Below, piece after piece: positions 1-56,059 of a stretch of DNA of 64,000 bases. The stretch covers positions 4,488,944 to 4,552,943 of the forward strand of contig OZ316894.1 in assembly GCA_973895155.1 (NCBI GenBank). Reading direction: 5' to 3'. Source of the stretch: Marsupella aquatica (lineage: Eukaryota; Plantae; Marchantiophyta). Below the pieces are notes generated by a model. That model saw only the letters and a program-made list of their open reading frames with translations. It did no database searches and was not told where the DNA came from. Position numbers and translations under genes: made by a program. Numbering within the stretch: the first letter of the stretch is position 1; each line of letters begins with the position of its first letter.

Positions 1-108
1 GCCCCTGGTGGAGGCTACTGGCTGTGATTGCTGGTGGACTGTTGCTCCTTCTGGTACATCAATGCCTGCCCCTAATTTTTGAAGGTAATTTTGCAGATCT
101 TGTTCAGC

Positions 109-804
109 ATGGCACACATTGCTTGTCAGCTGCTGGATCCAAGATTTGGGCATAGGGAGCACCTCCGTATGGATCCCCCTTGTTGTTTTCACTGTGACGA
201 GGGAGGAACTGTTTTGTTCTGTGATGGCCCTTGTGGTCGCCATTTTCATTATGTAGTTGATGGCCACAACCCTGATGAAGAAGATGGCCATGGACCTACA
301 TGTCAGCGGATTGTCATTTCCAGAGGTCATGATTGGGCTGCAGCTTGGCTTTGTGACCTCTATCAGCAAAATAGAGGAAGATGTTTTGGTTGTGGACTCC
401 TTGGTAGAACCTTGAGACCCACCACAGATGAGCCCCTTGTGATACAATGTTCTCATGATGGCTGCTACTCATTTTACCATGTGGGCTGTCTCCGGACACT
501 TCTGCGATTGGGGGAAATGCCTTTCACCCGCCATCCAGATAACCCTGATGCACATCCCGATGCTCTTATATGCCCACGACATTACTGTGAGGTCTGTAAG
601 GAGTATCGAGAGGGCATTTGGGATTTTGTCCAATGTCGTAGATGCCCTCGTGCATGGTGTCGTGATGAAGGACCAACAACAGACAGGCACTTGAGGAGAA
701 GGGTGAGGGGCCGAGACACCTGGGACATTGGACAGTGGCGCATGATTTACTATACTCACCATGTCATCCTTGAGGGTTCTGATATCCCTAGTACCCATGA
801 CTAG
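109..804 (+). CDS. EDM2/NSD-type composite PHD-finger module, stand-alone and partly degenerate; probably transposon cargo
   Basis: CFHCDEGGTVLFCDGPCGRHFH...CFGC...QCSHDGCYSFYHVGC...LRLG...ICPRHYCEVC...QCRRCPR follows the Cys/His spacing of the EDM2 2.5-PHD module as I recall it (CDNGGEILCCEGSCLRSFH...CPLHKCSVC...CRRCPK). Some ligands are lost (CDLY, RAWC). Confidence 0.7.
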   Translation: MAHIACQLLDPRFGHREHLRMDPPCCFHCDEGGTVLFCDGPCGRHFHYVVDGHNPDEEDGHGPTCQRIVISRGHDWAAAWLCDLYQQNRGRCFGCGLLGRTLRPTTDEPLVIQCSHDGCYSFYHVGCLRTLLRLGEMPFTRHPDNPDAHPDALICPRHYCEVCKEYREGIWDFVQCRRCPRAWCRDEGPTTDRHLRRRVRGRDTWDIGQWRMIYYTHHVILEGSDIPSTHD

Positions 805-883
805 ACCAGCATGACTGCTATTGATTTCACCATCTTATAACTTGAACCTTTTTTGTACTGGACCCATAAGACAGCCTAAATTA

Positions 884-1031
884 TATGAACTTAAGTATTT
901 GGTTGAAGGCTATGGACTTAAGTATTTGGTTGCATGCTATCGACTTAAGTATTTCGATGAATGAAATGGACTTAAGTATTTGCTTGAACGAAATGGAATT
1001 TTGATCGATGAATTGAAATGGACTTAAGTAA
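884..1031. repeat. Degenerate ~27-bp tandem repeat (core ATGGACTTAAGTATTT)
   Basis: ACTTAAGTA recurs five times between 888 and 1030. Confidence 0.8.
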
Positions 1032-1606
1032 GTCTCATTGACTACAATAGATTGAGTGTTCAGATGACATTGTGAATGGTTGACTTGAGTCCTGATCTTT
1101 TTCCATGTCTGTCCATTGTTGTATGACAGGTTCATCTACCTAATCCTTGTCCCTTACTTTCATAGCCTGTATAACTATCCATCATGGCACACCTAGGCAT
1201 GAGCTCTATCAGATTGGTAGAAAAGAGTGGGGAGGGAGGAAAGCCTGATACTCCAATCTGTGTCATGTCCTTCAAAGAGGCAGACTCTGGCAGATTTCCG
1301 TCTGAAATGTGTAGGTGTAGTAGAGTTTGACTTTGATTTTTGGGATGAGAGGTTGCCTGGTCAAGTCCGGCGCTTTTCAGAGAAGACTGTTGGGGTGACT
1401 GAACTTCAAGGGACAATTTACGTGATTGCACAGTAAGTTACCCTCAGTTGCCTTGCCTACTGAGAGGGTCACAATTGGTTCCTCTCATTCATCTGCTGCC
1501 ACTGTGTCCAATTTGGCAGGCACAATTCCCTTGACTGAAGGACAAACAAAAGGGGTGCCAGTACAGGCTATTGTACTGCCTGTCACAGGCTCCTTTGAGT
1601 CTCACC

Positions 1607-4600
1607 TCATGTCTGAGGCTGCATCAAAGACCTGGAATGATGAGTGGTTGAAGCTATGATCCTGGGTAAACCAGAAGGGCTTCGGTGAGCACAAGTGGAG
1701 AGTGCGGACGTGGGATGAGGGAGGGGAGTGTCGAGGTCATCTAGAATGCTTAGTGTAGGGAGACTTATGGGAATGCAGCCAATTCACAGGTGCTCAAGTC
1801 CATCGCAAATTGCTTTAGCAATTTCAAGACAAAGCACCTGACCAACCCTAAACACAAGGAGAACGTACTGGTGTAAGCAAAGGGGTATACCTGGAGCTTT
1901 GGTGACGGCTGCTGACACTATACAGCAACCATTGTTTGATCATAGTATGCAAATAGGGGCTGGTGTGGAAATAGTGGGAAAGTTGAATGAAGAGGTAGGT
2001 GGGGTGGTAGAAGTGTTCTCTATCACACCATCTCCCACTGATCCAACATTTGCACGGAGGTCATTCCTATTTAAGGTCAGATGTATAGTCTGTGGCAAGC
2101 TACATACTGACATGTGCCCTAAGAAATCCAATTTGGAACACAATTTAAGGCAACACCTTGTCAGTCGGGATCATATGGATGCACTTGAGAACGTTGTCAC
2201 CAGTACCCAGGCTGCACTGAGGGCAGGGAAGAAGGGGAGACCAAGGAAGCCTGATGCTCGTGATCTGTTTCCATCTCAAAATTCTATTCTGAATTTCTTT
2301 AGAGAGGACAGCTCTGCTGCAGGGAGCAGTTCAGGCAGAGGTGGGTTGTATTCCTCCATTGAGCCAAGTTTAAGTTTGCTTTGTTGGGGCCTATGGGAGT
2401 CAGAGGTGAAGTGGACAGGGGATTCTATGGCTGTGAAAGGCATACTTGATGATCAAGAGGGAGGAAATGTGTGGGATTGTGACCGTACAACCTGTGCTGA
2501 GGTTTTCAATGTAACTAGTCAGTCAGTTGTTGGTATACATGGTTGTTTTAGGCACAAGCAATGTCACGGGGTGTCCATTAATGGAGGTGGTTTTCAAAAC
2601 CTCACTTGCACTCTATGTGATTCTATAAAACGTGAAGATGATTTTCGTGGCAGAGTGCACAGGGAAGCGGAAGCATTAGTGCAGAGAGGAGATAGGACTA
2701 CACAGTGTGGGATGAGGTTGGCATACTTGACCAAAACTGAACTGAGGGAACATGTTGGTAACCTCACCACTCGCTTTAGGAAACAGCGTTGGCTGTTGGC
2801 ACAACAGGCTCAGAAAATTTGTGCCCTGAGTGTTAGGCGAAAGAAGCTAGAAGATTTATTAGGAGTAGCCCATGATAGGAAAGATTTAAGACTGTTTCTG
2901 AGAAATATTGTGAATGGACATAGATGTGGTGCTTTTGGTGGCAAGGAAGGGTTGTGGGATTCCTGACAAATGTAGCTAAGAACTTGCAAAGAGTTGCTAA
3001 GGGTTATCGATACAGTAAGAGAACCAGGGCTTTCTCCCAAGCCATGTTTCAATTTGGAGGCAGACAAGTGGCTCATTGTTTCCAGGCTAACCTAGGTGGT
3101 CCAGGTCTGAAGACCTTGAAACGTGATAGAGCAAAACTCCCACCCTTTAGAGCTGGCATTCAAAAAGAGATATTCCAGGAGGTGTGCAGAGTACTGTGTG
3201 CATCAAAGCGGTCACTTGGAATTGCAGGAGATGTACCAGTAATGTTTGTTGAGGATGAAACAAGGATCAAAGAGAGACCCAGGTTTGTGTTTTTGTCTCT
3301 ATAGTAAATTAGCTTGTTTTTTTGAATGTGTTGGGTGAGTTTGCATGTCATGAGCTGATGTCTGTATTCTATTGTGTGTGACAGATGGGAAGCTAAATAT
3401 GACACCCTCATTGGTTTCTGTGGCCCCTTAGAAGAGCACTGTACATGTTCTTCTGGCTTGGAAGTACTGGTTGGAGCAGGTACTGAAGGGTATGACAAGA
3501 TTGTAAGTACTTTTGAGCAATATGCCAAAGGCATGTATGCTAGAGTAATCATTGTCAATCCTCTGCATGCAAAGATGCCTAAATTGGCATTGTGTGTTCT
3601 ACCAACATGTAACAAGTTTCGAGCTCCCTGGGTAAGAGAGCATTGGGTGCAGCTGAAGTCCATGTGGGACACACATTGCAGAGACAGTGTTGGTCCTTTG
3701 TTGGGCCATGCTAGTGATGGTGATGCTCGTCGTAGGAAATTGATGATGGAAGATTATACTGCTGTGAATGGTTCCTTTCCTAGGTACAGTGTCGGATGGG
3801 TTGGGTGGCAATACTCAGTGTCCATACTTCCGAATGGAGATCTATATGGTTTTGGAGACCAAGACCCACCTCACAATGGCAAGAAGGCAATTAACCCATT
3901 GGACCGAGTGTCTGCTATGTTAGTTCTTGGTGATCAGCATGCATCTTTGTCATATGTCACATCTGTTTATAACCATTATGCAATTCATGAGCATGGTTTG
4001 CATTGGGATGATGTGAATAGGACAGATAGACAAAACTGGGCTGGCCCACAACGAATAGCTTCCAGGAGAGTGCAGGCCTGCCTGCAGCATATGTATGAGT
4101 GACGAGATGTTCATCATGACAGAAGCCTTGGGACCATGATATACTTGGAGGTTTATGCAGACTACATAGATATTTTCTTCTCTGTTAAGCATGACCTAAG
4201 AACCCGTGTTGTCTTGGCATCAAAGGTATCTTGGTTCTTCCGATTGTGGAGGCTATGGTTGAGGTATGGTGATCATTCTGTGACAGGGAATGCTGGATCT
4301 ATCACAGAGAAGAACATGATTTCTGTGCAGGCTTTCCATGATATCAACATGTCTTGTCATTTTGTAGTATTGTTAATCTGTGCCTTTCGGGACAAGTTCC
4401 CATATCTGCAAGTTCCATTTCACTTGCTGGGATCAGATTGTTGTGATATATTTTCAGCAAGGTAGGTGGCATGAGTGGCCATGAGAGAAATTATGACTTT
4501 GGATCTCTACTGGACAGTGCAGTGGGACTGAATCGACTAGCTGGATTAGAGTATGGACCAGAGGGATTGAAGATACGTCGATCACATGATAAACAGGATC

Positions 4601-5783
4601 ATGTTTGGGCAACTTTACATCCTCTGGATGAAGGAGAACAAGCTTCAAATTTATTGATTACTCTGCAGTTCAGACTAATGAGCTGGTTGTTGATGCTCTA
4701 AAGGAAGGTTTGCAGGAAGCAAAAGATTTGTTGTGCAAGCTGAACATGTCACCAAGGAGTTCTTTGCCAGCAGCGAAAAGATGATGGTGGGTTCATCCTT
4801 GGGAGGCGGAGGTAGAGACTTGGCCGGATACAAGTGTCATGAAAGAGGCTGTGTTATGTGATGATGCTGAAGACACAGTTGAGCATCGATCTACTGTAGG
4901 CCCTAGACCTAAGCCCCCAATTGGAGAGTTTCTAGAGTTTGAAGATCCTGAAGAAGATCTCAATCGGATTGATTCATGGGACACTCTGGACAATCAGGAT
5001 TGTATTGAGTCACTAACAGTTGATGATTGTTCGATTGAGGTGGACACTAACCCATTTTGTGAGATGGAGACACTAGGACATGAAGTAAGGCATGTCTTGG
5101 CTAGAGTTCAAGCAGACTTAACTGATGTGCAGACACCCCAGTCAGTAGTGTCTACTGTAACTTATGAGGGAAGGACTATCTACAAGTCCACTCTTGTGAG
5201 TCAATTGTGCTGCAATCCTTTCATGTCAAAGGATAGGCTAACTAGGATAGCCCAGAAGACCTATTACACTACTGGTAAGGAGAAGGAAAATGATGACTCT
5301 GTGACTTGATTGGTTGACCTTGGTACTGATATAGCAGTTTTGTTTGAGTCTGCTGCAGAGGTTGGTCCTTCTACCAGATCATCCAAGTCAAAGAAGAGGA
5401 AGGGAATAGATAAAGGGCCTGTTGTTGACGCAACATCTGCAAAGAAGGAATATTGGTTGGGTAGGATTGAGTTTATGATACAGAAGAATGGCTCCCATTG
5501 GGTCAAACGTCGGAAAGCAATAGATCTATTGGACAGGCCTGTACCTGCAGTTGGACAAAGTGGAAGTGTGTGTCGCTTGCAGTGTAATTGGTACAAATCT
5601 ACTGGTAACAACAAAACTTTGTTCACTTATGATGCAACAGATGGACAATGGATTGATATTGAGATGGTAATTTCAAATGTGAACTTGACAATGAAGTCTG
5701 GGATAGTTGACAGAGTGTATGTACTAGATGCAAGTGACTTGCAGGCTTTGACTACATACATTCAAAGTGTGAGTAAATTGTGA
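1607..5783 (+). pseudogene. Degenerate DDE transposase, P-element-like, with N-terminal C2H2 finger and AT-hook
   Basis: ORF pieces 1899-2966, ~2960-3282, 3386-4102, 4136-4465, 4471-4701 and 4839-5783 join across frameshifts, stops and a GT-AG intron (~3283-3385). Motifs: CIVCGK..H..H finger, KKGRPRKP AT-hook, MFVEDET, GHASDGD, QDPPHNGKK (DxxH), DRQN, GSDCCDIF(F)SKVGG. Confidence 0.65.
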
Positions 5784-5871
5784 TATATAATTTACTATTG
5801 TTTATTAAAAGTAGTTTGTTATGTGTGTATGTGATGCATTTGTAGGGTTAGTGGGAGGGAGTAGAGTAGGG

Positions 5872-5931
5872 GATGGCGGATTGGCAAATTGAGATTTATG
5901 CTCAATCAGGGGTTCAATTCCCCTCCGTCAT
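5872..5931 (+). other. tRNA-derived fragment (Pol III A/B boxes), not a complete tRNA
   Basis: TGGCGGATTGG (A box), TTGAG-7nt-CTCAA stem-loop and AGGGG-TTCAATT-CCCCT (T arm/B box). There is no proper acceptor stem. Confidence 0.4.
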
Positions 5932-6379
5932 GTGTACATCATCATGCATGAGTCTGTGAAGGAAGGTAGAGATGTGGACATCATCATGCGGGAGTTTGTG
6001 AAACAAGGTAGAGTACCGATGCCTTGAATAGGCAACCTATGTTGTTCGGTTACCTATCTATAGTATCTGGCACCCACCATGCTTCACTATTCAAGAGTGA
6101 AAACTACAAGTTGTTGGATGATATTTACAAGATATTCAGCTTCATGATGTAAATTCATTGAATGTATCAATTTGCATCAATTGGCTCTACACTATTGAGG
6201 TACTTAACTTCCTTAATAGGCATTTTTTAAATCATCATAAAACTTTCCATAAAGTTTTATAGGGGTAAACAATTCAAAAAATGGTCGCTTTTCAGAAAGT
6301 AAGGGAGTGGGGAAAAAAAAATTCACTTAAAAGTTAGGGGGTCCAGACCCTAAAACGTTGCACGAGATGTAGAGCCCTT

Positions 6380-7530
6380 ACATACAGTGACCCCCCCAAG
6401 GGCAACCCTGGCCAAGGAGAAGGATTTACCAAGGGGAGGATGGCCAGAAGATATTCGGTGGCCTGCCGAAGAACAAGCCAGCCCCCTACCCACGTTTGAT
6501 GAGGTTTGAAAGGCGACGTGGGAACAAAGGCCGTGTTGGGAGATGCCGGATCCTAACCACTCCACACATGCACGTTGCAGAGCGTTGGAGTATGGGAAGA
6601 TGTGCGGATTACTTGCCCTTGGCATCTTTGGGGAAGAGTTGGAGACGGGGCCTTTTATCCAAAGGGAGATGTTGGATAAAAGTCGGTTGGAAGAAGCAGT
6701 AGCCTTGGAGAGGATGAAGAAGGAAGAGGGCATCCGACGAGTTAGAGAGAGGGAAGCCAAGGCCGGAGATCTAAAAGCAGCCAAGCAGGCTCAAGACAAG
6801 CTTCGTGTTAGGAAGCATGAGCTTAGCATCATGCAGGGGCAGCTAGATACAACCATGGCTGATAACCAGTTATTCAAGAGCATGAACTAAAGGAGGCAAA
6901 GTTGGCTCACATAACGATCTGCAACAAGGCCATGGTAGAGGCGCAGAGGAAGGAGAGGGCACTAAAGGGGGAGCTCAAAGATCTCCGCGAAGCCTTTCAG
7001 CAAAAGAATGTCGAATTGGATAAAACCTACAGGGGCATTGATAATTGAAGGTGGACCTCGCACCTTGTTGGCCAACTTTGAAGCCAACCTGCGTAGGAAG
7101 GACAACATGCCCAATCAAACCTACGAGAAGATGAACAACATGGAGTATGATGTCATCCACAAGCTCAATGCGGAGCTGAGAGCAACTTAGGAGGAGAGGG
7201 CGGCCTTACGGACGAAGTTGGACGAGAACCAAAAGGAGTTAGAGGAAGCTCGTGGGGATTTGGACGAGACCCAGGAGGAGTTGGAGGACACAGTGCGCGG
7301 AAGATGGAAAACTTGCAGAGGTGGGTGGACAACCAAATGGAGCGATTGAAGAAACTAGCCAAGGAGTTGAAGCGCTCGGCTACATTAAGTGGACCCCCGG
7401 TGGCGGCAACAAGGTTGCAAGGCGTGGTATTGGCCAAAGGACAAGCCGAGGCACCCTTACACGTATCGAAAGTAATTGGCAAGGGGAAGGCACCGGTTGC
7501 CTGGGAAGGGAAGGACAAGAAGAAGTGAAA
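6380..7530 (+). pseudogene. Disrupted coiled-coil ORF of unknown family, probably internal to a transposon
   Basis: Consecutive E/K/R-rich heptad-like segments (LEEAVALERMKKEEG, LRTKLDENQKELEEARGDLDE) are interrupted by stops and frameshifts. Confidence 0.35.
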
Positions 7531-8919
7531 ACCTTCTGGGTCAGGAAGCAACATGGTTCCTCAGGCCACCGTGACTGAGGTAGAGGACATGGCACCGGCC
7601 TTGTGCGAGGTCACGACAGTTAAGTTGGCAGTCTTGGAGGTCAACCAAGAAGATCAGCTCGGTGCAGCCATGACAAGGACGGACTCAAGGTTGCCAATTA
7701 TTGAGAGGCATCAACCGCAACCTTGGGAGGAGGAAACAACCTGCCTCGTAGGACGAGCTTATGGAAGACCACTACGGTAATGAGACCGAAGCCGGGCGTG
7801 CCAGAATAGAAGCCGTAGCAGTGGACCCACCACTTTTGCATGTCGGGAAGGTAGCAAAAGCCGAGGCTGGAGTGGGACCCGATCATGCCAAGGGCGGGTT
7901 GACCCAGTCAGGAGCAGGTAACCTGTTAGAGGACGAACCTACAACATTGGCCACCGAGGAAGGATTGGGGGCATCCATTGGGCACCAACCACCATTGTTA
8001 TGACAGTGGTGGAGGGCCGTCCGTTTTAGGGAGGGCGGATGTGGAGGAAGAGGCGTGAGTGGGCAAAGCAGGCACGGACCTCCAGATTTAGGATTAGGGC
8101 CAAGAGGCGGCCCTAACACTTAGTTTAGTGGGATTGCGGATCCACTGGTAAGAGCAGCACTTGTGCTCTTGCCCCGTTGTACATAAGTAGGTTACAGTTA
8201 AATAGATTAGGCTTACGCATCAAGGAAATAAGTAGATACGCTGCCACGATAGATACTTATGCAACGGGGAGTTCAGGGTTTTTCTTGGCAAGTGTTTATT
8301 GCTCCAGCAAGGTTGGGATCAAGTAGTAAAAGAAGCTCTCGGTTAGTTATGCAGTGACCCTTGTGTATATTCATGTTTCCTCATGCCTAAGAGCTGAATA
8401 GAGTTGGCCTTCCAGCTTAGTTCGCAAATCTTGCATATGAGAAGTACAGTTTGTATGGCAGTTGCACGATATAACTTAATCAATATGAGTCATTTTTCTA
8501 TTTGTGTGTCACATCAACTTGTGTGAAGATTGTCCACATCAACTACAGGAGAGAAAGGAAGTAAGTGAAGTTGCAAGAAGCAGTATGAGTTGGATGTGTC
8601 AAGCTGAGAGAGATCTTAGCGACTACCCAAGCCAATTGGGCATTATTCCGGGGGGGGGGGGGAGGAATCCAAACATACCTAAAGGGAGACTGATAGAAGA
8701 GGAAGGGAGCTGCTTAGAAGTAGGTCATCTACATATCTCATGACCCGATGAAGGATCTGTCCAATGTATGTGAGTAAGAAGTTAGTAAAGAGATTAGCAG
8801 CGTCCCATGCCGATAAGCCGCTGAACCGGCCTTGGCAAGAGCGAAACCAATTGGAATCGGCTTGTTCAGGGGAGGTTCTTGGGTTTAGAGAGCCATGGGA
8901 CGCACCACAGTCTCCTTGT

Positions 8920-9410
8920 CCCAACCCCTTTCTATTTCAACACTATACATGCCCTCCATGTTTTTCCTCATTCCTGGCCCTATCCCCAACTCTTACCTAT
9001 ACAACCTAGCTTCTCTCCTCACTCCTTTCCTTGTCCCCCTCCTAAACCTATACCTTTAAACCTCCCTCATTTCCTTGTCCCTCTCTAAACCAATACCCTC
9101 CCTCCTAATAAAACCTATATCCTTAAACTATCTCATTTCCTTGTCCCTCTCTAAACCAATACCCCCCCTCCTCCCTCCCTAAATCAACACCCTCCCTAAA
9201 ACTATACGTACATACCCTTCCTCCTCCTTGTTTTTCTTTGTGCCTCCTAAACCTATATCCTACCTCCTGGATCGCTCCTTTCCTTGTCCCTGCTAGCCCC
9301 ATTCCCTTCCTCCTCCTCCTTTTCATTGTCTCTCCCTAAAACTACACGTATCCTCCCTCCTTTACCCTCCCTCCCCAACCCCATTCCTTGTCTACCCTTT
9401 TCTACCTCTT
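8920..9410. repeat. Pyrimidine-rich degenerate repeats (CCTAAACCTATA / TTCCTTGTCCC)
   Basis: Strong C/T strand bias. CTCATTTCCTTGTCCCTCTCTAAACCAATACCC is present twice. Confidence 0.6.
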
Positions 9411-9429
9411 TGAAGCACTCATAATATTT

Positions 9430-9957
9430 TGCAAAACCACTTGCGAAACCCCGAACAACGCACATTCATCGCTGTATTTGCGATAGCTTTATGCTTGCTA
9501 CTTCCCATCTCTGCGTCGTCGCAACTTTCCGAACAAACACGTTTCTCACATTTGCGAAACTATTTTCATCACAAATTGTGACCCTCGACAAACCACGTAT
9601 TTGCGAGACTACGTGCATCGCAACGTAGCCAGACAATCAACATCGTTCATTTGTGATTTAGTGCTTATGGCAAGATCCGTTGTGATGTTGTGGGCGTCGC
9701 AAACTTTGCCAGCCAGATTTGCGAAGCAATATGTGTCACTAAATGTTTAAATGATAAGGGCTTCAGAAATGTTTTGCGGTGAGTTTAGTATCGGAAGGGT
9801 TTGCGAAAGGTTTGAGATCGCAATATTTGGTTGCGATGTGTATTGCTTCGCGAGGTGCGATGCGGATTGTATCGTAATTATAGCGATAATTTTCATTTTG
9901 CAAGGCTTTCATCCGCTTGTAAAATGCCTTCGCAAAATCGACAAATATGTAGTAGTG
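9430..9957. mobile_element. Right end of a CACTA (EnSpm) element: TIR plus subterminal repeats
   Basis: Ends ...AATATGTAGTAGTG at 9957 (reverse complement CACTACTACATATT), preceded by many TTGCGA/TCGCAA motifs in both orientations. Homology to the HNL copy-2 3' flank starts immediately after it. The left TIR was not found in the window. Confidence 0.8.
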
Positions 9958-9999
9958 AAAGCTGTTCGTTCATGGACCTTGATTATCTAAAATCATCGG

Positions 10000-12900
10000 T
10001 CATGAGGTCGTCGTCGGTATTCTTACAAATGAGCTAACATTGTCTGCAGAGTCCGTGTCGGTTTCCTCACACTCGTCCTTATTTCCATCTCGTTCACTAT
10101 AACATGCAACTCCAATCCAATCCGGAAGAGTCGCTGAATACCTCTCCCAAATCAGACACAACGATTGATCTCCAATACTGAAGGGATGACATCCAGAGGT
10201 CGCACAGGCTCCACAAGCACGAACACACATTTCTGGGAACAGCACTGTGGCCAACTTGCTGTTCAGCACATCCCTGATTTCTCCTCCTGTTCCTCTATGA
10301 AACGCTATCTTCCTTGCCTCCTCCCAGTCCTCCCACTTGACAAGGTATTTTATCTGCCCTGCAGAGTATTTCCCGCAACACTCCAAGAAGCATTCCACTA
10401 TGCTCCATGAATCCGTCGATACTAAATCAAGTTTGGGAGACTCCAGTGGTGTGGATGCCTGGCCTTCAGACGTGGAGCACCCTCCCTCCACTGACGACAC
10501 CTCGCCCACCGGGTGCGGCATTAGTTGCAGGCTCCCACACCTATATATAAAGAGATCACGCAAGGAAGGTGGCAAGGGACTCCAAGATTCTGGCAACCGA
10601 GCCAACTGAGGAAGGTCATCTAGAGTTAAGTGACAGAGCTTGCATAGCTTGTCCAAGCTCTCGGGTAGCTTTCGAAGTCTCTTACACCCTCTTATGAGGA
10701 GTGCTTCTAGACTTGTCAAGTTCCCCAAGTCAGAAGGGATCACCAATGGGAGATCAAAGTCTGCCAATTCCAAGGTATTGAGCGATGACAAGTCCTGCAA
10801 TGCACTGAACAGAGTCGGAAGAGAACATTGCGCGTAACCTCTGCCATTCAAGCATAGGGTAGTGATTGCCTGAAAAGCAGGTGATTGAGATGGAAACATG
10901 TGAACTCCTGATTGTGGTCGCCCATCTCCCGGATCCAGAGCGCTCTCATCTCCTCGGTCTCCAACCTCCTCTGATTCCAGGAAAAACGCAGAAGCGTCGG
11001 ATGGTACCACTGGCAGGACAAGATGGTCGAGACTTGACAACCTTCCAAAGGACCGTGGGAATCCCCGCCACTTGGTCGAAGTGACAAGAAAAGTACTTAA
11101 TGCAACCAGATCTCCGATATTTCTTGGAACGGTCGTTAGTTTCGTTTCCTGCAAAGACAAGTGGCGTAGAGAATGAAGCCTACAGATGGAATCTGGGAGT
11201 TTCTCCATAGGAGTGACGTTCAGGTGCAGGCGAACTAAACTTTGGAGTTGACCTATGCTTTCCGGCAACGAGCACAACTGCGTTGCGCTAAGATCGAGGA
11301 CTTCCAAACTTTTGAGATCACTGAATGACTCTGGCAGGGTAGTCACTTTTGTGCCCTGAAGCTCAAGCTTCCGTAACATCTGAAGGCGACATAGCCCTAG
11401 AGGAACTTGCTTCAGCAGAGTGCCGCCAAGTTGCAAGGACGTGAGTCTCTTCAACTTCCCAAGCTCCATTGGTAGCCTACTCATCCCTGTCCCGTTCAAC
11501 CCCAAGTACTCCAGACGGTTGGATAGTCCGAATGGCAGCTCCGCCAACAATTTGCAACCTTCAAGCTCTAACCACGTGAGCTTTCGTGCTTGCACAACAT
11601 CAGGCGGGAGGGACCTCATCGATTTACAACATATAAACTCCAGAGCTACTAGATTCTCCAAATGGGTGAAATCCACAGGGCAAGCAACAAACAGGCCATT
11701 TTTCCACCTCATATACACCAAAGATCTCGGCAATTCCAGTCTCACCCCTTGTGTACTCACGTCTTGGAGTATCAAGTATTCAAGACGAATATAGTTCCGG
11801 AAGGTGTTCCTTCGAAGTGTAACCAATTCATTCTGCAAGGGATGAAGGAAAAGAGCCGAAGTCTCCACAATCCCCTGCACGACCCATGCGGTTTACGCTT
11901 GAGCGATTGTACCATCGAGTATCGTCTAGAGCAGAGGAAGGTCTACTAGCATTACCATGTTTTTCAAATTTCCAAGGGAGTGGACTTGTAAAGTTCTACA
12001 TTGTCACAAACGGGCCCATTTGGTTAGTAGAGTCCAATTACCTCATGATTAGTTACCAACTTGCTCGCAGTAGACGACTCAGATATCCTTAGCCATTTGT
12101 CGATGCCAACGCCATCCGGACATGCAATCCTCTTCCCAAGATTTATCAGATGTTGGTGCATCCATACGTGACCACTGTCCTCATATACGAAAAATTGCTC
12201 CTCCAGATTCTGCAATGCTAAGTGGGACGTTCTTCGACACGCCTTCCAGATGCATTTCAACAAGGACAATGGAAACCCATGAAAAATTGTGGCAATGTCC
12301 AGAAAAATCTGTCTCTCAGAAGCTTGGAGACCTTCATAGCAAAGCCTCAACTTGGCCCAGAGTTTCTCATCATGACCAGCATTAATTTCTTCAGCTTCGT
12401 CTAGCCTGGTCACTAGATCGTCCCAGAGTTCCCTGTCAGAAAAGTCCCGCTTACTAATGCAAGCCCCCAAGATCTTGAGAAAAAGAGGGTAATTACCACA
12501 CTTCAATATGGCTTGCTGGATATACTCCTTCAAATCCTCTGGTCCATCTCTATCCCCAAAAGCATAATGACAAAACAAATCTTTTGATTCATCAGCACTC
12601 AAGAATGGCACCTTGAAAGTATTCTGTGGGCTCCTCAGCCAGGGAGTTGTCGTTGCTATACTGGAGGGATTTGTTGTCGTCACAATTATTTTACTAGAAT
12701 TCTTTTGTAGCCAGGTTGAAAGGCACAAGGCATCTAGCTGGTCCTGTGAGTCCACGTTATCCAGGACCATTAGAACCTTTGTATTGCAAAAACGATGAAT
12801 CATGTGCGACCTATTTATTGTGGACCCTCTGTCGGCTTCTCCTAGTTCTTCTCGAATCGTTTTCCATATATATTGTCCTGGGCTTGCAGTTGCTTCAATA

Positions 12901-14739
12901 CTGTCCAGCGATACAAAGCAACTAACTTCGTAGTTGTGCCGTATCTTGTGGAAGACGTGTTGAGCTAACGCTGTTTTCCCAGAACCACTTAAACCAGCTA
13001 TGAAGATTGTTCTTGTCTCTCCTTGGGCCAACATCCTTTGCACATCTTCCGCACGACCTTCTCTGTCAACATAATACGGTAATTGAGCATTGATGTCATC
13101 CCCGGCTCCTCTCTGAAGTAACCCATCGTCTTGTATCTGGACTCTCCAATTTTAGGACCAGCCAATGAAATATTACTTACAGCTCAACAAGATAGAGAAC
13201 ATAATTCCTTTCATCAAAGGAAAGTATTTAGTCCATGGCTGGTTCAGAAGGGATCACAACCAAAGTAACCTTATGTACTGTTTGCTACAAGCATGCATGT
13301 GCTACACATTTTTATTCAGGAACGTTGACATAATCTTACCTTTCTCAAAAACTCACAGAGACGTTGGAATGCACTGTCAGTTTTCCCCTTTGGTTTGCAG
13401 ATGTCATGATGATCTCCCGGAGCAGAATAGTATCCATCCATGTATGCCCTTGTGGAGGCTTCACAACCCACATGGATATACTTTCCTATGCATTGCTGCG
13501 CGAGAAAACACATCATGACAATGGACAATAAGCAGACACTAAAAACGTGTGTCTGAGTGATATTTTGGCACATCCCGAGGGTAAGAGCTGGGGGATCCCG
13601 ATGTCCTCTCGAGGATAATAAGCATAACACTAAGTACAAATCATATCAGCACCTCAAAATCCACAACCATGACCATGACCGCACAGTACTGTCTGATGAA
13701 GATATCTTTACATCAAATATAGCAGACAATATATGAATCACCGCTCAAAATACGACGACAAACAGTAATTGGAGCAACCGATAAAACGGTAAATAGATAG
13801 AGCTTACCACATATGTTTCTCTTGATTCACCTATTCCATAAGTCAACCATTTCTTCTCCGACTTTAATTCCATGAACGACTCATTTCTTCTTGTGCTAGA
13901 CGCCTTGAGACTCTCTATCTCTTCTGACAGTGCACCGACACCTTTAAAACAATCGTGTAACATGTCGCCAAGCACTGACCCAGTGTGGGGAGTCCCGTAG
14001 AAGAACATTCCTTTCAGATTTGAAAAGAAAGCTTCAGCACGGTGTGCTCTAGGCTTTCCTGTGTTTCTACGACAAGCGTTCTCCGCAAGCAAACAAATTT
14101 CTTTCAACACCAAACCTCCTAGGCAATGGCCCACGAGTACCACTGGGCATCCTGCCTGTCCAAGACCAACCTCATCCGCAGTCAGGTCAGCTACCAAATT
14201 CTCCCCTGTTTGGTACATGTCCATCCTCCCAGAGGCCACAGTTTTTGTGGCAGAAGAATCATACGAGACTGTGAAAATGCGAGCTTTGGGGAAGAATTCC
14301 ACCAGCCATGTTTGCAGCCAACATTCAGAGTAATCTCTGGTCATCCACGTTGTAGCGTAAGGCTGTGTGCAATGGTCGAATTGAAGACCATGAAAGAAAA
14401 CGACTTCTAGTTCTGGCGTTTCTTCCGGAGGAGGTTGGTACACACGGTACACCATGTCGTTGAGCTGCAGAAAGCACACATGCGAAAATTAGTCTTACGA
14501 TGAAGATAGTTCATCCACGAGACACTAAACAGGAACTTCAATGGCAACTTCGACAGACCCTGCTTGCTTGTGAATGCTACAAATTCAATCCAAGACCTGT
14601 CTACATAGCATCAGGATGTTTAACAAACCTTGGTGAGCTTGGGCATAACAAATTGGGGACTCGGAGGTTCCACAACGGACGATTTCTCTTGGACCTTGTT
14701 CCATACACTGAAGAGGGAAGATAACGGAGATTCAGCCAT
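10000..14739 (-). CDS. alpha/beta-hydrolase-NB-ARC-LRR immune receptor (HNL copy 1), ~1297 aa
   Basis: Exons 14629-14739, 13808-14464, 13340-13495, 12042-13136 and 10000-11874, all GT-AG and phase 0. Hydrolase motifs VFFHG, GHCLGG, FYGTPHTG, DHHDICKP; P-loop GLSGSGKT, Walker B VLDNV, FLDIA, MHQ; plant-type LRRs. Confidence 0.9.
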
Positions 14740-24440: not shown

Positions 24441-27400
24441 CTAGGCACACAATGTACTTATGATCTGCACTACTTTTTGCATAATTCTTGCAAATGAGCT
24501 AACATTGTCTGCAGAGTCCGTGTCCGTTTCCTCACACTCCTCTTCATTTCCATCACGTTCATTATGTAGATACGTGACTACAATACAATTAGAAAGAGTC
24601 CTTGAATTCCCCTCCCAAATCAGAAAAAGCAATTGTTCTCCAGTACTGAAGGGATGACATCCAGAGCTCGCACAGGCTCCACAAGCACGAACACACATTT
24701 CTGGGAACAGCTCTGTGGCCAACTTGCTCCCCAGCACATACCTGATTTCTCCTCCTGTTCCTGTATGAAACGCTATCGTCCTTGCCTCCTCCCATTCCTC
24801 CCACTTCACAAGGTAATTTATCCACCTTGCATAGTGTTTCCCGCAACACTCCAAGAAGCATTCTACTATGCTCCATGAATCCGTTGATACGGAACGAAGT
24901 TTGAGAGACTCCAGTGGTGTGGATGTCTGGCCTTCAGACGTGCAGCACCCTCCCTCCACTGACGACACCTCGCCCACCGGGTGCGGCATTAGTTGCAGGC
25001 TCCCACACCCATATATAGAGAGATGACTCAAGGAAGGTGCCAAGGCACTCCAAGATTCTGGCAACCGAGCCAACTGAGCAAGGCCATCTAGAGCTAAATG
25101 CCGGAGCTTGCATAGCTTGCCCAAGCACTCGGGTAGCTTTCGAAGTCTCTTCCACCCCCTTATGCAGAGTGTTTCTAGACTTGTCAAGTTCCCCAAGTCA
25201 GAAGGGATCACCTCTGGGAGATCAAATTGTACCAATTGCAAAGTATTGAGCGATGACAAGTCCTGCAATGCACTGAACAGAGTCGGAAGAGAAGATTGCG
25301 CGTAACCTGTGCCATCCAAGCTAAGGGTAGTGATCGCTTGAAAAGCAGGTGATTGAGATGGAAACATATGAACTCCTGATTGTGGTCGCCAGTCTCCCGG
25401 ATCCAGAGCGCTCTCATCTCCTCGGTCTCCAACCTCTGATTCCAGGAAAAACGCAGAAGTGTTTGATGAAATCGCTGGCAGGATAACTCTGTCGAGACTT
25501 GACAACCTTCCAAAGGACCGTGGAAATCCCCGCCACTTGGTCGAAGTGACATGAAAAGAACGCAAAGCAACCAGATCTCCGATATTTCTTGGAACGGTCG
25601 TTAGATTCGTGTACTGCAAAGACAAACGACGTAGAGAATGAAGCCTACAGATGGAATCTGGGAGTTTCTCCATAGGAGTGACGTCCAGGTTCAGGCTAAC
25701 TAAATTTTGGAGTTGACCTATGCTTTCCGGCAACGAGCACAACTGCGTTGCGCTAAGATCGAGGACTTCCAAACTTTTGAGATCACTGAATGACTCTGGC
25801 AGGGTAGTCACTTCCGTGCCCTGAAGCTCAAGCTTCCGTAACATCTCAAGGTGACATACCCCTCGAGGAACTTGCTTCAGCAGAGTGTCGCCAAGTTGCA
25901 AGGACGTGAGTCTCTTCAACTTCCCAAGGTCCCTTGGTAGCCTACTCAAGCCTGTCCTGTTCAACCCCAAGTACTCCAGATGGTTGGATAGTCCGAACGG
26001 CAGCTCCGTTAACAATTTGCAACCTTCAAGCTCTAACCAAGTGAGCTTTCGTGCTTGCACAACATCAGGCGGGAGGGACCTCATCGATTTACAACATATA
26101 AACTCCAGAGCTACTAGATTCTCCAAATGGGTGAAATCCACAGGGCAAGCAACAAACAGGCCATTTTTCCACCGCAAATAGACCAAAGATCTCGGCAATT
26201 CCAGCCTCCTCCCTTGCGTACTCACGTCTTCGAGGATCAAGTATTCAAGATGAATATAATTCTGGAAGGTGGTCCGTCGAAGCGTAACGAATTCATTCTC
26301 CAAGGGATGAAGCAAAAGAGCCGAAGTTTCCACAATCCCCTGCACAAGCCATGCGGCTCAAACTTCAGCGATTATACCATGAAGCATCGTCTCGAGCAGA
26401 GTAAGGTCTACTAGAATTACCAAGTTTGTCAAATCTCCAAGAGAGTGGAGTTTAAGACTTTTACACAAATACATTGTCACAAACGGGCCTATTTGGTTAG
26501 CAGAGTCCAATTACCTCATGATTAGTTACCAACTGCCTCGCAGTAGATGACTCAGATATCCTTAGCCATTTGTCAATGCCAAGGCCCGCCGGACATGCAA
26601 TGCTCTTCCCAAGATCTCTCAGGTGTTGGTGCATCTGAATATTACCCTTGTCCTGGTAGGCAAAAAATTGCTCCTCCAGATTCTGCAATGCTAAGTGAGA
26701 CGTTCTTCGGCACCCCTTCCAGATGCATTTCAACAAGGAACATGGAAACCCATGAAAAATTGTGGCAATGTCCAGAAACATCTGTCTCTCAGAAGCTTGG
26801 AGACCTTCGTAGCAAAGCCTCAACTTGGCCCAGAGTTTCTCATCACGACCAGCATTAATTTCTTCAGCTTCGTCTAGCCTGGTCACTAGATCGTCCCAGA
26901 GTTGCCTGTCACAAAAGTCCCGCTTACTAATGCAAGCCCCCAAGATCTTGAGAAAAAGAGGGTAATTGCCACACTTCAATATGGCTTGCTGGATATACTC
27001 CTTCAAATCCTCAGGTCCATCTCTATCCCCAAAAGCATAATGACAAAACAAATCTTTTGATTCATCAGCACTCAAGAACGGCACCTTGAAAGTATTCTGT
27101 GGGCTCCTCAGCCAGGGAGTTGTCGTTGCTATACTGGAGGGATTTGTTGTCGTCACAATTATTTTACTAGACTTCTTTTGTAGCCAGGTTGAAAGGCACA
27201 AAGCATCTAGCTGGTCCTGTGAGTCCACATTGTCTAGGACCATCAGAACCTTTGTATTGCAAAAACGATGAATCATGTGCGACCTATTTATTGTGGACCC
27301 TCTGTCGGCTTCTCCTAGTTCTTCTCGAATCTTTTTCCATATATATTGTCCTGGGCTTGCAGTTGCTTCAATACTGTCCAGCGATACAAAGCAACTAACT

Positions 27401-28577
27401 TCGTAGTTGTGCCGTATCTTGTGGAAGACGTGTTGGGCTAACGCTGTTTTCCCAGAACCACTTAAACCAGCTATGAAGATTGTTCTTGTCTCTCCTCGGG
27501 CCAACATCCTTTGCACATCTTCCGCACGACCTTCTCTGTCAACATAATACTGTAATTGAGCATTGACGTCATCCCCGGCTCCTCTCTGAAGTAACCCATC
27601 GTCTTTTATCTGGACTCTCCAATTTTAGGAGCAATCAATTGAATATTACTCACAGCTCAACAAGATAGAGAACAAAATTCCTTTGATCAAAGGAAAACAT
27701 TTAGTCCATGGCTGGTTCAGAAGGGCTCACAACCACAGTAACCTTATGTTCTGAGAACAATTCGTCTGCTGTTTGCCACAACCATGCATGTGCTACACGT
27801 TGAGATAATCTTACCTTTCTCAAAAACTCACAGAGACGTCGGAATACACTGTCATTTCTCCCCTTTGGTTTGCAGATCTCATAATGATCTCCTGGAGCAG
27901 AATAGTATCCATCCATGTATGCCCTTGTGGAGGCTTCACAACCCACATGGATATACTTTCCTATGCATTGCTGCGCGAGAAAACACATCATGACAATGGA
28001 CTATAAGCAGACACTAAAAACGTGTATCTGAGTGCAATTTTGGCACATCCAGAGGGTAAGAGCTGGGGGATCCCGATGTCCTCTCGAGGATAATAAGCAT
28101 AACACTAAGTACAAATCATATCAGCACCTCAAAATCCACAACCATGACCATGACCGCACAGTACTGTCTGATGAAGATATCCTTACATCAAATATAGCAG
28201 ACAATATATAAATCACCGCTCAAAATATGACGACAAACAGTAATTGGAGCAACCGATAAAACGGTAAATAGATAGAGCTTACCACATATGTTTCTCTTGA
28301 TTCACCTATTCCATAAGTTGACCATTTCTTCTCCGACTTTAATTCAATGAACGACTCATTTCTTCTTGTGCTAGACGCCTTGAGACTCTCTATCTCTTCT
28401 GACAGTGCACCGACACCTTTAAAACAATCGTGTAACATGTCGCCAAGCACTGACCCAGTGTGGGGAGTCCCGTAGAAGAACATTCCTTTCAGATTTGAAA
28501 ACAAAGCTTCAGCACGGTGTGCTCTAGGCTTTCCTGTTTTTCTACGACAAGCGTTCTCCGCAAGCAAACAAATTTCT
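24441..28577 (-). CDS. HNL copy 2, 5'-truncated (hydrolase N-half and exon 1 missing); intact NB-ARC and LRR; possible pseudogene
   Basis: Exons 28283-28577 (partial), 27815-27970, 26515-27609 and 24441-26339 are open and in frame. Homology to copy 1 stops at 28577, just after the GHCLGG position in coding order, so that motif is absent. Confidence 0.8.
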
Positions 28578-36576: not shown

Positions 36577-39500
36577 CTACTTGTGAGGCAATTGCAAAAC
36601 CTGCAACGCATCACGGTGTCTAGAAAAACTCTCCAAAGGAATCACTTTGGTAAAAGCATCAGCCGGGTTGAGTTTACCATCAATCTTGACTAGCTCAAAC
36701 ATATTATCAGACACAGCCTGCCTGATAAAATGGTACCTAACGTCGATGTGCTTCACTCTGCTGTCCATCACCTGGTTCACAGTAAGGTGGAGTGCACTCT
36801 GACTATCACAATGGAGCTTCACATTCCCCTGTGGCAATCCCATCTCAGTGATAAGTCTATCCAACCAAATCGCTTCCTTTGCTGCTTCCGTTGCTACAAC
36901 ATACTCCGCTTCTGTAGTAGACTGAGCAATACACTTCTGCAAAGTAGACCTCCAACTTATGCATCCACCTCCAAGTGTGAACACATAACCTGTTGTTGAC
37001 CTCCTCTGATCCAGATCCTGTGCATAGTCAACATCTACATAGCCCATCAATGATCTAGCATTATCAGCATGTGCATCAAACAATAGACCATGATCCACGG
37101 TACCCTTCAAATACCGAATAATCCACTTCACTGCTTCCCAGTGTACCTTCCCTGGATTCGACATGTACCTGCTCACCTTGCCCATAGCCATGGCAAGATC
37201 AGGTCTAGTGCAAGTCATCAAATACATGAGACTCCCCACTGCCTTGTCATACGGAACCTTTGACATCAACCCCTTCTCTGTGTCATCCGTAGGACAGAAC
37301 GCTGATGATAACTTGAAGTGTGGAGCCAACGGGGTACTTACTGGCTTGCTATTTCCCATGTTGAACCTTGCAATTACCTTCCTCGCATAACTGCTCTGCG
37401 TCAACCATAGCTTGCCAGCCTCCAAGTCCCTAGTGATCTCCATACCCAAAATCCTCTTAGCTGGCCCTAAGTCCTTCATCTTAAACTTTGCACTAAGCAG
37501 TGCCTTGAGCTTAACAATCTCAGACCTATCCTTGGCTGCAATTAGCATGTCATCCACATAAAGTACTAAAACAATGAACCCAAAGACAACATTCTTCACC
37601 GGTTTAAGATACACACATGGGTCAAACACACTCCTGTGAAAGCCTTGTGCACGAATATAATCATCAAACCGTTTATTCCACTGTCTTGGTGACTGCTTCA
37701 ACCCGTACAAGGATCTCAGCAATCTGGAAACCAAATCCTCTTGCCCTTTCTTCACAAAACTTAGCGGCTATCTCATGAAGATCACCTCTTCCAAGGTGCC
37801 ATAGAGGAAAGCTATGACAACATCCATCTGATCTAGCAGCAGACCAAACATAACAACAAGCACACACAATAGCCGTATTGTTGAGTACTTAGCAACTGGT
37901 GAGAAGACCTCATTGTAATCCACACCTTTTTTTTGTGTGAACCCTTGGCTACCAACCTAGCCTTATAGACCTTCGATCCACCTCCTGTGGATTGATCCTT
38001 CAACTTGTATATCCACTTGTTGTCCACCACTTGTTGTCCCTTAGGCAGCTTGACAAGCTCCCAAGTTTTATTGTCCTTCAGTGACTGCATCTCCGTTTGC
38101 ATTGCTGCAGTCCACTCCTGCTTCTCCTTTGAAGCACTTGCTTCATGAAATGAAGAAGGTTCACCTTCTTCCAAAATCAACGCATCACCCTCATCGTCAG
38201 TAACAAAATCCTCCTCTTGCAACTGAGATGAATCAACCCACTGTCCATACCTTGGTGGAGCGCGTACAATGCGACCAGATGCTCTTCTAGCCGATGACTC
38301 TGGTTGATCTGCGTGTGTTGGTACAATTTGAAGCTCAACAACATCCACTTGCTGCTCACCAGCATCAACAAACTCCTCTGGTTCCTCTGGCACAGGAACC
38401 AGCTCCATAATTGGAGCAACTCATTCTCTTCGGTCATGCACCTCATAACCAATCTCCCCCTCAAAGAGATCCGGGATAGGAGATTTTCCTTTGTCAGTAC
38501 GGGAGACCTGAGTATTCTCCCCCTCCTTCAATAATCTGGATTCATTGAAGGAAACATCCCTACTAACAACGAGCTTACAGGCAATAGGATCCCATAGCCT
38601 ATAGGCTTTCACACCACTCTGGTACCCAAGAAAAACACATTTCTTGGAGGTAGGATCCAACTTGGTCCTATTCTACTTTGGTGTGAGAGCATATGCATCA
38701 CTGCCAAAAACTACCAAGCCATGATAGTCTGCTTGCCGCTTATAGCGCATCTCAAACGGCGTTTTGAAATTGATAGCACTAGAAGGAGAAAGATTTACCA
38801 AATAAGCTGCAGTATTGACAGCTTTTGCCCAAAATTCTTGTGGTAAACCTGATTGGCTCAACATACTCCATGACCGCTCCAACAGTGTCCGATTGAGCCT
38901 CTCAGCGACACCATTCTGCTGCGGAGTATAAACTGTGGTGAGATGGCGAGTTATCCCCTATTCTGAACAGTACTCTTCAAATTCCATTGAAGTGTACTCC
39001 CCGCCGTTGTCTGACCTAAGACTCTTCACCCTTGTATCCAAACACTTGACCGTGTTTCCAGTCTGACTCTCCACCTGAGCCTTCCACTTCTTAAAAATGG
39101 ACAAGACATCAGACTTATGCGTCATGAAATAAATCCACACAAATCTTGAGTAATCGTCAATAAATGATACATAGTACAACTTTCCAGAGTGTGAAGGAGT
39201 CGGGGATGGACCCCACACGTTACTATGTATGTACTCAAGAATCGCTTTGGAACGATGAGTTCCAACACCAAAAGCTTAACGATGCTGCTTTCCAAGAATG
39301 CAATGCTCACAGAACTCTAATTTACAAGATTGCAAATCAGAAATGAGTCCATTCTTCCGTAAGATAGCCAAACCCTTCTCACTCATGTGGCCTAGCCGTG
39401 AATGCCATAGTTGAGTCATCTCCTCGTGAGACTTGGTTACATTGGCCTCTCCACATACAGTATTGCCCTGTAACACATACAAATTATTTTGTCTGCTCCC

Positions 39501-40789
39501 CTTCAAAATAACTGTCTCTCCCGACCTGACTTGAAGTTCACCATCAATAATGCTCCATTGATGACCATTTGAATCCAACACACCGAGTGAAATCAGATTC
39601 TTACGCATGCCAGGTACATACCTGACTCCCGACACTGTGCGCACAGCGCCATCAAATATTTGAATCTTCACAGATCCAATTCCCTCAATTTGACAGGAGT
39701 GATCATTTCCCATCAGAACTGAACCGTTTGAAACAGAGTAAGAACTGAAAACTCACGAATGTAACAAATATGAAAAGAGTAAGCACAACCAAGAATCCAC
39801 ACATCATCTGCTCTCCTAGATGACGTGCATAGGGCATACCCCCGACTTCATAAAACATACTCATCATTGAGTAAATCAGTTTCTCCATCAGCCCTAGCCA
39901 CATTTGCCGATGAAGTTTCCGTTGCCTTTCTCTTACAGTCTCGCTTGAAGTGTCCAACTTGGTTGCACTTCCAACATGTCACCTACCTTCTCTGAGGGGA
40001 TTTACCCCTGGACTTAGATCTGGATTTAGATCTAAACTGGGTTCTACGGTCCTCAGTTGGTCGCTGCATACTCCTCCCACGGTTAACATTGAGGGCAGCA
40101 CCACATGATGAAGGTTGTGACGTGATGTGCATCTTCTGCTGAAGATCATCACTAAGCAGAGAACTTACCACGTCATTGTATGAAATGGTATCCCTATCAC
40201 GATGCAACAACACTCGTGATAGGGACTGGTAAGATGGAGGCAATGAACTAAGAAGCTGCAGAGCCTTCGTCTCATCATTCAAAGTCTCTCCAAGGTTTTC
40301 CAAGTCAACGACCATGTCGTTGAAAGCATCCACATGGTCTTGCAACTTCGTACCGGATTCCTTCATCCTGAAACTCATCAGTTTGTAGAAAGTGTAGAAC
40401 CGGTTCGACAACTCCTTGCGGTGATACTTGCTCTGCAATTCCGCAAACAAGGACATGCAATCCTTATGTGCACCCAACTGCTTGATAATGGGAGGCATGA
40501 GATAGAGTGTAACACACCACACTCCCTGCTCCTGCATGCGGTCCCATTGTTTCTCATCAACATCGTCTTCACGAGGGCTCAGCAGTTGGCCCATCCCTGA
40601 CGCATAGAGCACTCCCTTCACCTGCTTCTCCCATAGCAAGTAGTCAGAGCGCCCATCATACTTTGTCACTTCATACTTTGGTCCCCCAAGCTTGAAAGTC
40701 CCCATCTTCTTCTTTGGCACTACCGTGAGCTCCGGTAGTAGTACTGCTTCCTCCACCACACGCCGCACCGGTGATGGTATCGGTGTCAC
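36577..40789 (-). pseudogene. copia gag-pol polyprotein with stops and frameshifts
   Basis: gag (YDGRSDYLLW, LLSSLPPSY), zinc knuckle CWKCNQVGHFKRDC, WHSRLGHMSEKGL, integrase IDDYSR / LRSDNGGEY, RT YVDDML, RNase H STTEAEY / KHIDVRYHF. Confidence 0.95.
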
Positions 40790-55443: not shown

Positions 55444-56059
55444 CTCGGGCCCTCCTCCTCCTCCTCCTCGTCACTCTCAAACCTTACTCCTCACTCTTTC
55501 TCTCTCTTCCCTCTCGAAAGAGCGAATCAATCAAATTCCTATAATCAATCAATCAGTCCGACCTAAAAACTACACAATCTCTAAATTTCGACCTCCATTT
55601 CCATTTGACCTGAGCTCCACGCCCATCTGTCAATCATTTGCCGAGCTCTCGGTGATGTAATCAAATCATGGGTCCTTCCTCTTTACTTCACCGGATCGTT
55701 CCTGCGTTCCCACCTTCCTTCCCTAGCTCCTATTTCTCACCGCCTCAGAAGATCTGCTGATGAGGATTTTGCCTTCCTCTTCGTCCAAGCCATCGATTCC
55801 GCGACTCCATCACAGTGGCACCCGACTTCTTAGCTCGGCCTGAATCCATCTCTGTTCTCGATGTTACAGTTCTGCGTTGTGGGTTCAATCCGGATCGGAG
55901 TAAGTCGTTAATTGTGAGTAGAGTTCAGTTGAATCCAGCGATGGTGGCAGTCATTGAGCTTCTTTCTTCCTCCAAATGCGCTGTGTTGAAGTTCACCTGC
56001 ATAGGCTTTTCTTCTTGTGTCATGATAAGGGTCTTGTTCTGCTGGCTGACGGTGTGACA

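Follow-up and report, generated by a model that had tools for sequence, protein, structure and literature searches.

The P superfamily of DNA transposons is marked by a DDE triad and a D(2)H motif (PMC3698922), and among P-element features the THAP domain is restricted to animals (PMC7776569). P elements are present in a few fungi (PMC5751038). For plants, a review of terminal inverted repeat transposons describes seven superfamilies, P not among them (PMC10741241), and a survey of 1,007 genomes that included P among the 17 superfamilies screened obtained active elements from seven others (PMC12973397). On the host side, EDM2 binds dimethylated lysine 9 of histone H3 (H3K9me2) at transposons and promotes full-length transcripts together with AIPP1 and the BAH protein ASI1 (PMC7529245, PMC7472560, PMC3632883); its C terminus is an N6-adenine methyltransferase-like (ELP) domain (PMC7529245). 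Here we describe a locus in the liverwort Marsupella aquatica. Positions 1–6400 of a 64,000-nucleotide stretch (GenBank assembly GCA_973895155.1, contig OZ316894.1, positions 4,488,944 to 4,552,943 of the forward strand; hereafter the window) are the right-hand portion of a multi-copy, decayed DNA transposon whose transposase is predicted to be of P type; an open reading frame (ORF) for a stand-alone EDM2-type PHD module lies upstream of the transposase on the same strand.

PHD fingers in transposons are already known. CR1 long interspersed elements, Rehavkus, Chlamys Penelope-like elements and other Chlamydomonas elements carry PHD accessories with a proposed action on chromatin (PMC8557442, PMC6446971), but there the finger lies inside the element's main protein, whereas here it forms a separate EDM2-type gene in a P-like element. 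VANC of the VANDAL elements (MULE) is likewise a gene of its own and probably derives, by capture, from a host chromatin regulator (MAIN-like proteins) (PMC13547354), and its targets are tandem repeats in the element's non-coding DNA (PMC5735166); a tandem array is also present here, at 884–1030. VANC differs in that it binds DNA motifs and removes methylation, whereas the PHD ORF encodes a predicted histone reader and its element is strongly CpG-depleted. No publication on EDM2, PHD, transposon and Marchantia together was found, and neither an EDM2-type reader gene paired with a P-like transposase nor land-plant P elements were found anywhere in print, Repbase and most subscription journals being outside the search. 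Repbase holds P elements of green algae, and plant P families may thus be catalogued already.

The transposase was identified through its homologues. A search with 3386–4099 returned 33 longer relatives, the named ones from Riccia, Calypogeia and Adiantum, and the full-length homologue P0017 (1,529 aa) matched the + strand in six tblastn pieces across 1591–5765. The P-type fold was read from the predicted model of P0009, a homologue that shares 56% identity with the window core, and not from the window copy's own protein. This model ranked Drosophila P transposase (PDB: 6p5a) far above RAG1, Transib and Hermes, with a Foldseek E of 5e-8 (next family, 1e-3) and a VIA Z of 25.5 at a root-mean-square deviation of 3.4 over 345 residues (next, 8.7). 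The core alignment holds the EDET, GHASDGD, DxxH and D/NxxExxF motifs, and D220 and H223 of the D(2)H motif are invariant. Metagenomes were also searched with the transposase alignment, and the best 80 of 116 loci were taken; one of them, the complete element L003, has 26-bp terminal inverted repeats and an exact 8-bp target-site duplication. A preliminary description, made from the sequence alone, had called the transposase P-element-like, which is borne out by the homologue fold, the motifs and the L003 duplication.

Likeness to Drosophila P and THAP9 (PDB: 6p5a, 6pe2) extends to a predicted RNase H core with a P-type helical insertion, the D(2)H motif and, in L003, short terminal repeats with an 8-bp duplication (7–8 bp in the P superfamily). 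The liverwort family differs in the length of its transposase (about 1,500 aa versus 751 for P), an extra N-terminal domain, a BAH-like C-terminal barrel, a second gene and the lack of THAP. Canonical P element ends begin 5'-CA, whereas those of the family begin CTC (L003), CCC (L002, a second metagenome relative) or CTT (window). GTP cofactor binding is a further mark of canonical animal P and THAP9. Pfam placed none of 26 transposase sequences in a transposase family above the cut-off (best, TNP-like_RNaseH_N, E 0.012) and found no THAP domain in full-length P0017 or L002; because of the latter, the family is named P-like rather than canonical P. Sequence searches against solved structures returned nothing for the PHD ORF or the transposase, and no viral loci came from the transposase search.

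The window copy of the transposase is decayed. Stops and frameshifts interrupt 1591–3282, for which domain labels were inferred from sequence and P-element domain order (PMC7776569). The catalytic core contains a stop at 4100 and frameshifts near 4450 and 4653, and its third acidic site is Asp, compared with Glu in the homologues. Indels at 1278, 1432, 1751, 4450 and 4653 are absent from other copies; since most of the window copy's lesions are not found elsewhere, intact copies are likely to exist. A profile of homologue N-termini matched 1278–1430 (E 1.3e-10) and the frame opens at ATG 1184 or 1199, so the gap between the two genes is about 380 bp; the gene order and shared + strand given in the preliminary description stand, but its gap of ~1 kb does not. 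At the other end of the protein, residues 674–806 of the P0009 model, taken as a domain inside the whole-protein model, matched about ten BAH domains (Z 5.8–7.0) as well as chromo and Tudor folds (5.9–6.5), and BAH matches at this level may reflect just a common fold. An Atlas search with this C-terminal domain gave no usable match. P0034, a distant family transposase, has a SAP domain at residues 1288–1323, and accessory chromatin domains therefore vary across the lineage.

Pfam, phmmer relatives, EDM2-named clusters and ligand columns all identify ORF 109–804 as encoding an EDM2/NSD-type triple zinc-finger module (two-and-a-half atypical PHD fingers). PHD_NSD matched with E 4.6e-8 and 33.7 bits (cut-off 23.9), accompanied by weaker PHD-1st_NSD and PHDvar_NSD matches with their order kept; only PHD families were hit in Pfam, with no VANC or plant mobile domain (PMD) match. 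Its close relatives in public assemblies are P0001 (247 aa, 67% identity), P0002 (226 aa, 57%) and one fragment, the first two aligning over 95% of the ORF. A deeper phmmer search gave 154 relatives, the best at 30–39% identity among the 150 listed; the highest-ranking proteins with a name come from Riccia, Marchantia and Calypogeia, followed by EDM2 of angiosperm, moss and Selaginella origin. These relatives, together with the alpha/beta-hydrolase NB-ARC-LRR genes farther downstream, point to a liverwort host. The predicted model (pLDDT, predicted local distance difference test, 79.5) matched NSD PHD-C5HCH domains and other PHD fingers modestly, with Foldseek E above 0.001 and a best VIA match, over fingers 2–3, to NSD2 PHDvC5HCH (Z 6.5). 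The PHD alignment retrieved no metagenome loci.

Conserved Cys/His columns are kept at 20 of 25 positions in the window copy and at 22 of 25 in each of P0001 and P0002. Tyr replaces the zinc ligands C85 and C215 in the window ORF, where P0001 and P0002 retain Cys, and other copies have Cys at residue 85 (position 362); the window ORF, although open, is therefore probably damaged. In the third finger, each of the three family members compared carries Cys instead of His at 184, lacks Cys187 and has His193, which suggests a zinc site remodelled by ligand substitution. The first finger retains the acidic residues D22, D30 and D39 and has no aromatic cage, a pattern expected of readers of H3 unmethylated at lysine 4. 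Binding of the PHD product to histone H3 tails is predicted and seems probable.

Six sequencing runs from three organisms, one of them possibly the source of the window itself, cover the stretch; their contigs were placed on the window and single-contig depths were compared. In run X1, depths were 200 and 199 for the PHD ORF, 238–267 for the transposase and 10–14 for low-depth contigs. The corresponding values were 75 and 54, 73–75 and 3.6–4.4 in X5, and 684 and 987, 1130 and 34 in X3. Both genes are multi-copy, and the PHD depth equals that of the transposase in three runs; the ORF is thus not the single-copy gene that had been considered as an alternative. Runs X1, X3 and X5 all cover the spacer bins, and listed contigs from X3 and X5 combined tile the spacer (773–982, 916–1024, 990–1137 and 1112–1361). 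Equal depth, the covered spacer, the lack of a terminal repeat between the genes and their shared CpG loss make it very likely that the PHD gene and the transposase form one element, a proposal of the preliminary description that is supported here short of proof. Two further contig observations concern variant copies. A 916-base X1 contig (depth 45) fuses about 760 bases of other DNA to 582–739 and is perhaps a deletion derivative, and contigs from runs X1 and X6 omit about 101 bases at the intron (3273–3375) and may mark related intronless copies.

Within the 64 kb, the initial 15 bases of the L003 repeat have a single match at three or fewer mismatches, at 6386–6400, and no terminal-repeat match lies in 1–1300, either left of or between the genes, where the best candidate has 5 of 15 mismatches. 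The element therefore ends at 6400 and its left end is likely to lie beyond base 1, outside the window as first proposed. The metagenome relatives L002 (15-bp terminal repeats, no duplication around the element) and L003 have intact transposase ORFs of about 1,500 aa and no PHD. Inside the terminal repeats of L002, alongside its intact 1,517-aa transposase, is an unrelated 174-codon cargo ORF (L002:7003–7527) that has no Pfam match. The PHD module was found in none of the 80 loci (the best 80 of 116), of which 53 have long core matches and 12 of these, at most 51% identical to the window core, include 3.3 kb upstream; transposase copies lacking it, which the preliminary description had raised as a difficulty, thus occur among distant relatives only. 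Because 0/80 relative loci carry the module, the PHD gene is, on this comparison of sequences, lineage-specific cargo and dispensable for transposition. No fused PHD–transposase protein was present among 34 transposase and 158 PHD matches.

The origin of the module was addressed with unrooted PHD trees. FastTree joined the transposon clade to a long algal branch, so smaller row sets were used (39/145 rows, and 34 rows after removal of five long or redundant branches). The transposon PHD clade, on a long stem, joins liverwort EDM2-like proteins, Mp1g03210 and Mp4g03050 among them, and is separate from full-length EDM2, with support of 99/98 in the 39-row tree and 100/99 in the 34-row tree (mixture model). 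Those liverwort proteins are without the methyltransferase-like domain and share a DPP motif. The atypical two-and-a-half PHD module is the same as in EDM2 and its liverwort paralogues (Mp1g03210, Mp4g03050 and the full-length Mp2g00350), but the transposon version differs from EDM2 in being a reader only, at 30–39% identity, with a remodelled third finger and many copies. No EDM2 effector domain (RFD-like, or methyltransferase-like ELP) was detected within the window, and the full-length EDM2-type proteins P0045 and P0046 match 172–792 only (1–12000 compared); within the window the ORF is therefore not an exon of a full-length host EDM2. The EDM2-like origin suggested earlier can be narrowed to truncated liverwort EDM2 paralogues, and capture from one of these, with rapid divergence at first and purifying selection later, is the probable history.

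Synonymous changes account for 13 of the 19 listed, best-supported differences between the window copy and other copies, against 22% synonymous sites (p 1.7e-5), and family members at 57–67% identity stay whole ORFs of similar length. These two observations make it likely that the PHD gene is selected, and the synonymous excess is support, not proof, for function. CpG observed/expected is 0.25 across 109–5783, compared with a minimum of 0.41 and a median of 0.62 in 52 same-size sliding windows elsewhere in the window, in line with the CpG poverty first noted for both genes; the ratio is 0.35 in the PHD ORF, 0.21–0.27 in the remainder of 109–5783 and 0.58 in the whole window. CHG is undepleted (0.96–1.23). 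That CpG but not CHG is strongly depleted shows long-standing methylation of the family, and any protection would therefore be partial or would act via read-through instead of demethylation. In the spacer, all five window matches to the 8-bp palindrome of the 27-bp unit lie within the 884–1030 array. Feature coordinates are collected in the table.

Features of the P-like element in the window (TRF, Tandem Repeats Finder; HTH, helix-turn-helix)
Feature	Position	Strand	Basis
Stand-alone EDM2/NSD-type PHD module ORF, 231 aa	109..804	+	Pfam PHD_NSD, homologues, model, ligand columns
Tandem array, 27-bp unit, about 5.5 copies, each with an 8-bp palindrome	884..1030	.	TRF score 143–147; inter-gene spacer
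Transposase N-terminal domain, ATG 1184 or 1199, frameshift near 1278	1184..1432	+	Profile of homologue N-termini
Zinc-finger-like, coiled-coil, HTH-like part and first catalytic acidic motif EDET (3251–3262)	1591..3282	+	P0017 tblastn
GT-AG intron, 102 bp	3283..3384	+	Insertion versus all homologues; splicing restores frame
Catalytic core: GHASDGD (D at 3716), D(2)H motif (3863–3874), third acidic site (4445–4447)	3385..4700	+	Alignment, homologue model
C-terminal beta-barrel, BAH-like by weak fold match	5310..5783	+	P0009 model residues 674–806; alignment
Tandem duplication, 42 bp, right subterminal region	5930..6013	.	TRF
Right terminal inverted repeat; element ends at 6400	6386..6400	-	1 mismatch to first 15 bases of L003 repeat
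Candidate right copy of 8-bp target-site duplication	6401..6408	.	Inferred from 8-bp duplication of L003

The reading that we favour, tentatively and with somewhat less than even confidence, is that the reader-only protein counters silencing in trans and independently of the transposase, through H3 tails and host EDM2-type factors. The protein would sit on H3 tails at the element and recruit or displace such factors, and would likely help the element to stay expressed in silenced chromatin. A role independent of the transposase is favoured because complete relatives have an intact transposase without PHD and because the transposase has a candidate reader of its own, the BAH-like C-terminal domain, which could itself serve targeting. 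A wider hypothesis, speculative and on balance improbable, is that liverwort DNA transposons domesticated a reader-only EDM2 offshoot that hijacks or blocks host heterochromatin read-through. In the P-like family the offshoot would pair with the BAH-like domain of the transposase, echoing host ASI1 (BAH) and EDM2 (PHD), in a histone-mark-guided form of anti-silencing distinct from the DNA-binding VANC type.

Given the same element and the same capture, the PHD protein might instead be a targeting adaptor that binds both the transposase and a histone mark and so steers insertion towards particular chromatin. The best structural match of fingers 2–3, NSD2 PHDvC5HCH, suits such a role, since the PHDvC5HCH module of NSD1 is a protein-binding module, and the zinc-finger-like and BAH-like parts of the transposase could dock a partner. 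The window copy also appears to sit inside another repeat, as indicated by the depth beyond 6400, and Harbinger, CACTA and MULE elements have known transposase-binding accessory proteins (PMC12973397). The existence of complete relatives without the PHD gene speaks against an adaptor, which we regard as rather unlikely. Another explanation treats the ORF as a passenger, in which case a fragment of host DNA would have been captured in the manner of Pack-MULEs and amplified with the element without present benefit. Against this, relatives at 57–67% identity are whole ORFs of similar length, synonymous changes are in excess, and the long stem branch has kept its ligands and acquired a family-specific remodelled third finger. 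Capture of gene fragments is frequent in plant DNA transposons (PMC6446971), L002 bears a different, unclassified cargo ORF and the window copy has lost two zinc ligands; a passenger nevertheless seems very unlikely.

It is about as improbable that the PHD ORF is a separate repeat, or a multi-exon gene extending left of the window, that merely adjoins the transposon. The bases up to 96 form a canonical splice acceptor that is in phase with the ORF, but P0001 lacks an AG at the equivalent site and P0002 begins near the same Met. The left end of the element is unseen and one X1 contig links other DNA to 582–739, both of which would fit separate units, whereas the PHD and transposase depths agree in each of three runs, and contigs tile the spacer, which contains no terminal repeat.

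Several points, the unseen left end among them, weigh against the favoured anti-silencing reading or its premises. The known function of EDM2 requires AIPP1 and ASI1 (PMC7472560), whereas the PHD ORF is a reader alone, and simple transfer of EDM2 read-through to the ORF cannot be assumed because it is without the EDM2 effector domain. Strong CpG depletion argues against efficient demethylation of the VANC type, and the altered third finger in all three family members may mean a different ligand specificity. The transposon PHD clade is a very long branch, and the approximately unbiased test did not reject its grouping with full-length liverwort EDM2 (p 0.09). The 19 differences behind the selection estimate are the best-supported subset (69 and 632 more rows lie outside it), and transition bias inflates their synonymous count. 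The excess over low-depth contigs in X1, X3 and X5 (13–29 times for the PHD ORF and 18–33 times for the transposase) is one of contig depth, which is not copy number, and is set against a baseline assumed to be single-copy with no host-gene control. Finally, none of the listed contigs spans the PHD ORF to the transposase start, X1 depth dips at 501–700 and X6 has no cover at 951–1150.

Beyond the right end, 6401–8100 is part of another repeat family, of greater depth, whose coiled-coil ORFs are decayed and lack Pfam matches, and the transposon appears to be inserted into that repeat. Pyrimidine-rich degenerate repeats with a repeated short motif family follow at 8920–9420 and 9547–9830 and are possibly the end of another element. 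Three related NB-ARC-LRR genes on the - strand (10003–14488, 24444–27624 and 43401–48115), two with an alpha/beta-hydrolase ORF upstream, form a bryophyte-type NLR cluster. A functional tie of the element to this cluster, 3.6 kb away, was considered and dropped, its support being proximity only. The - strand also carries the remains of a Copia-type retrotransposon at 36580–40801 (gag and reverse transcriptase matches) and a 602-aa HEAT-repeat ORF at 53665–55470, with a weak Pfam HEAT_2 match, which looks like TPLATE.

Anti-silencing by plant transposons is known mainly from the DNA-binding VANC. A captured EDM2-type reader, if true, would add a second route that works through histone marks, and would offer a minimal natural probe for what the EDM2 PHD module recognizes. 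The existence, in liverworts and a fern, of a P-like lineage that Pfam misses would also explain why the survey of 1,007 genomes lacks active plant P elements (PMC12973397).

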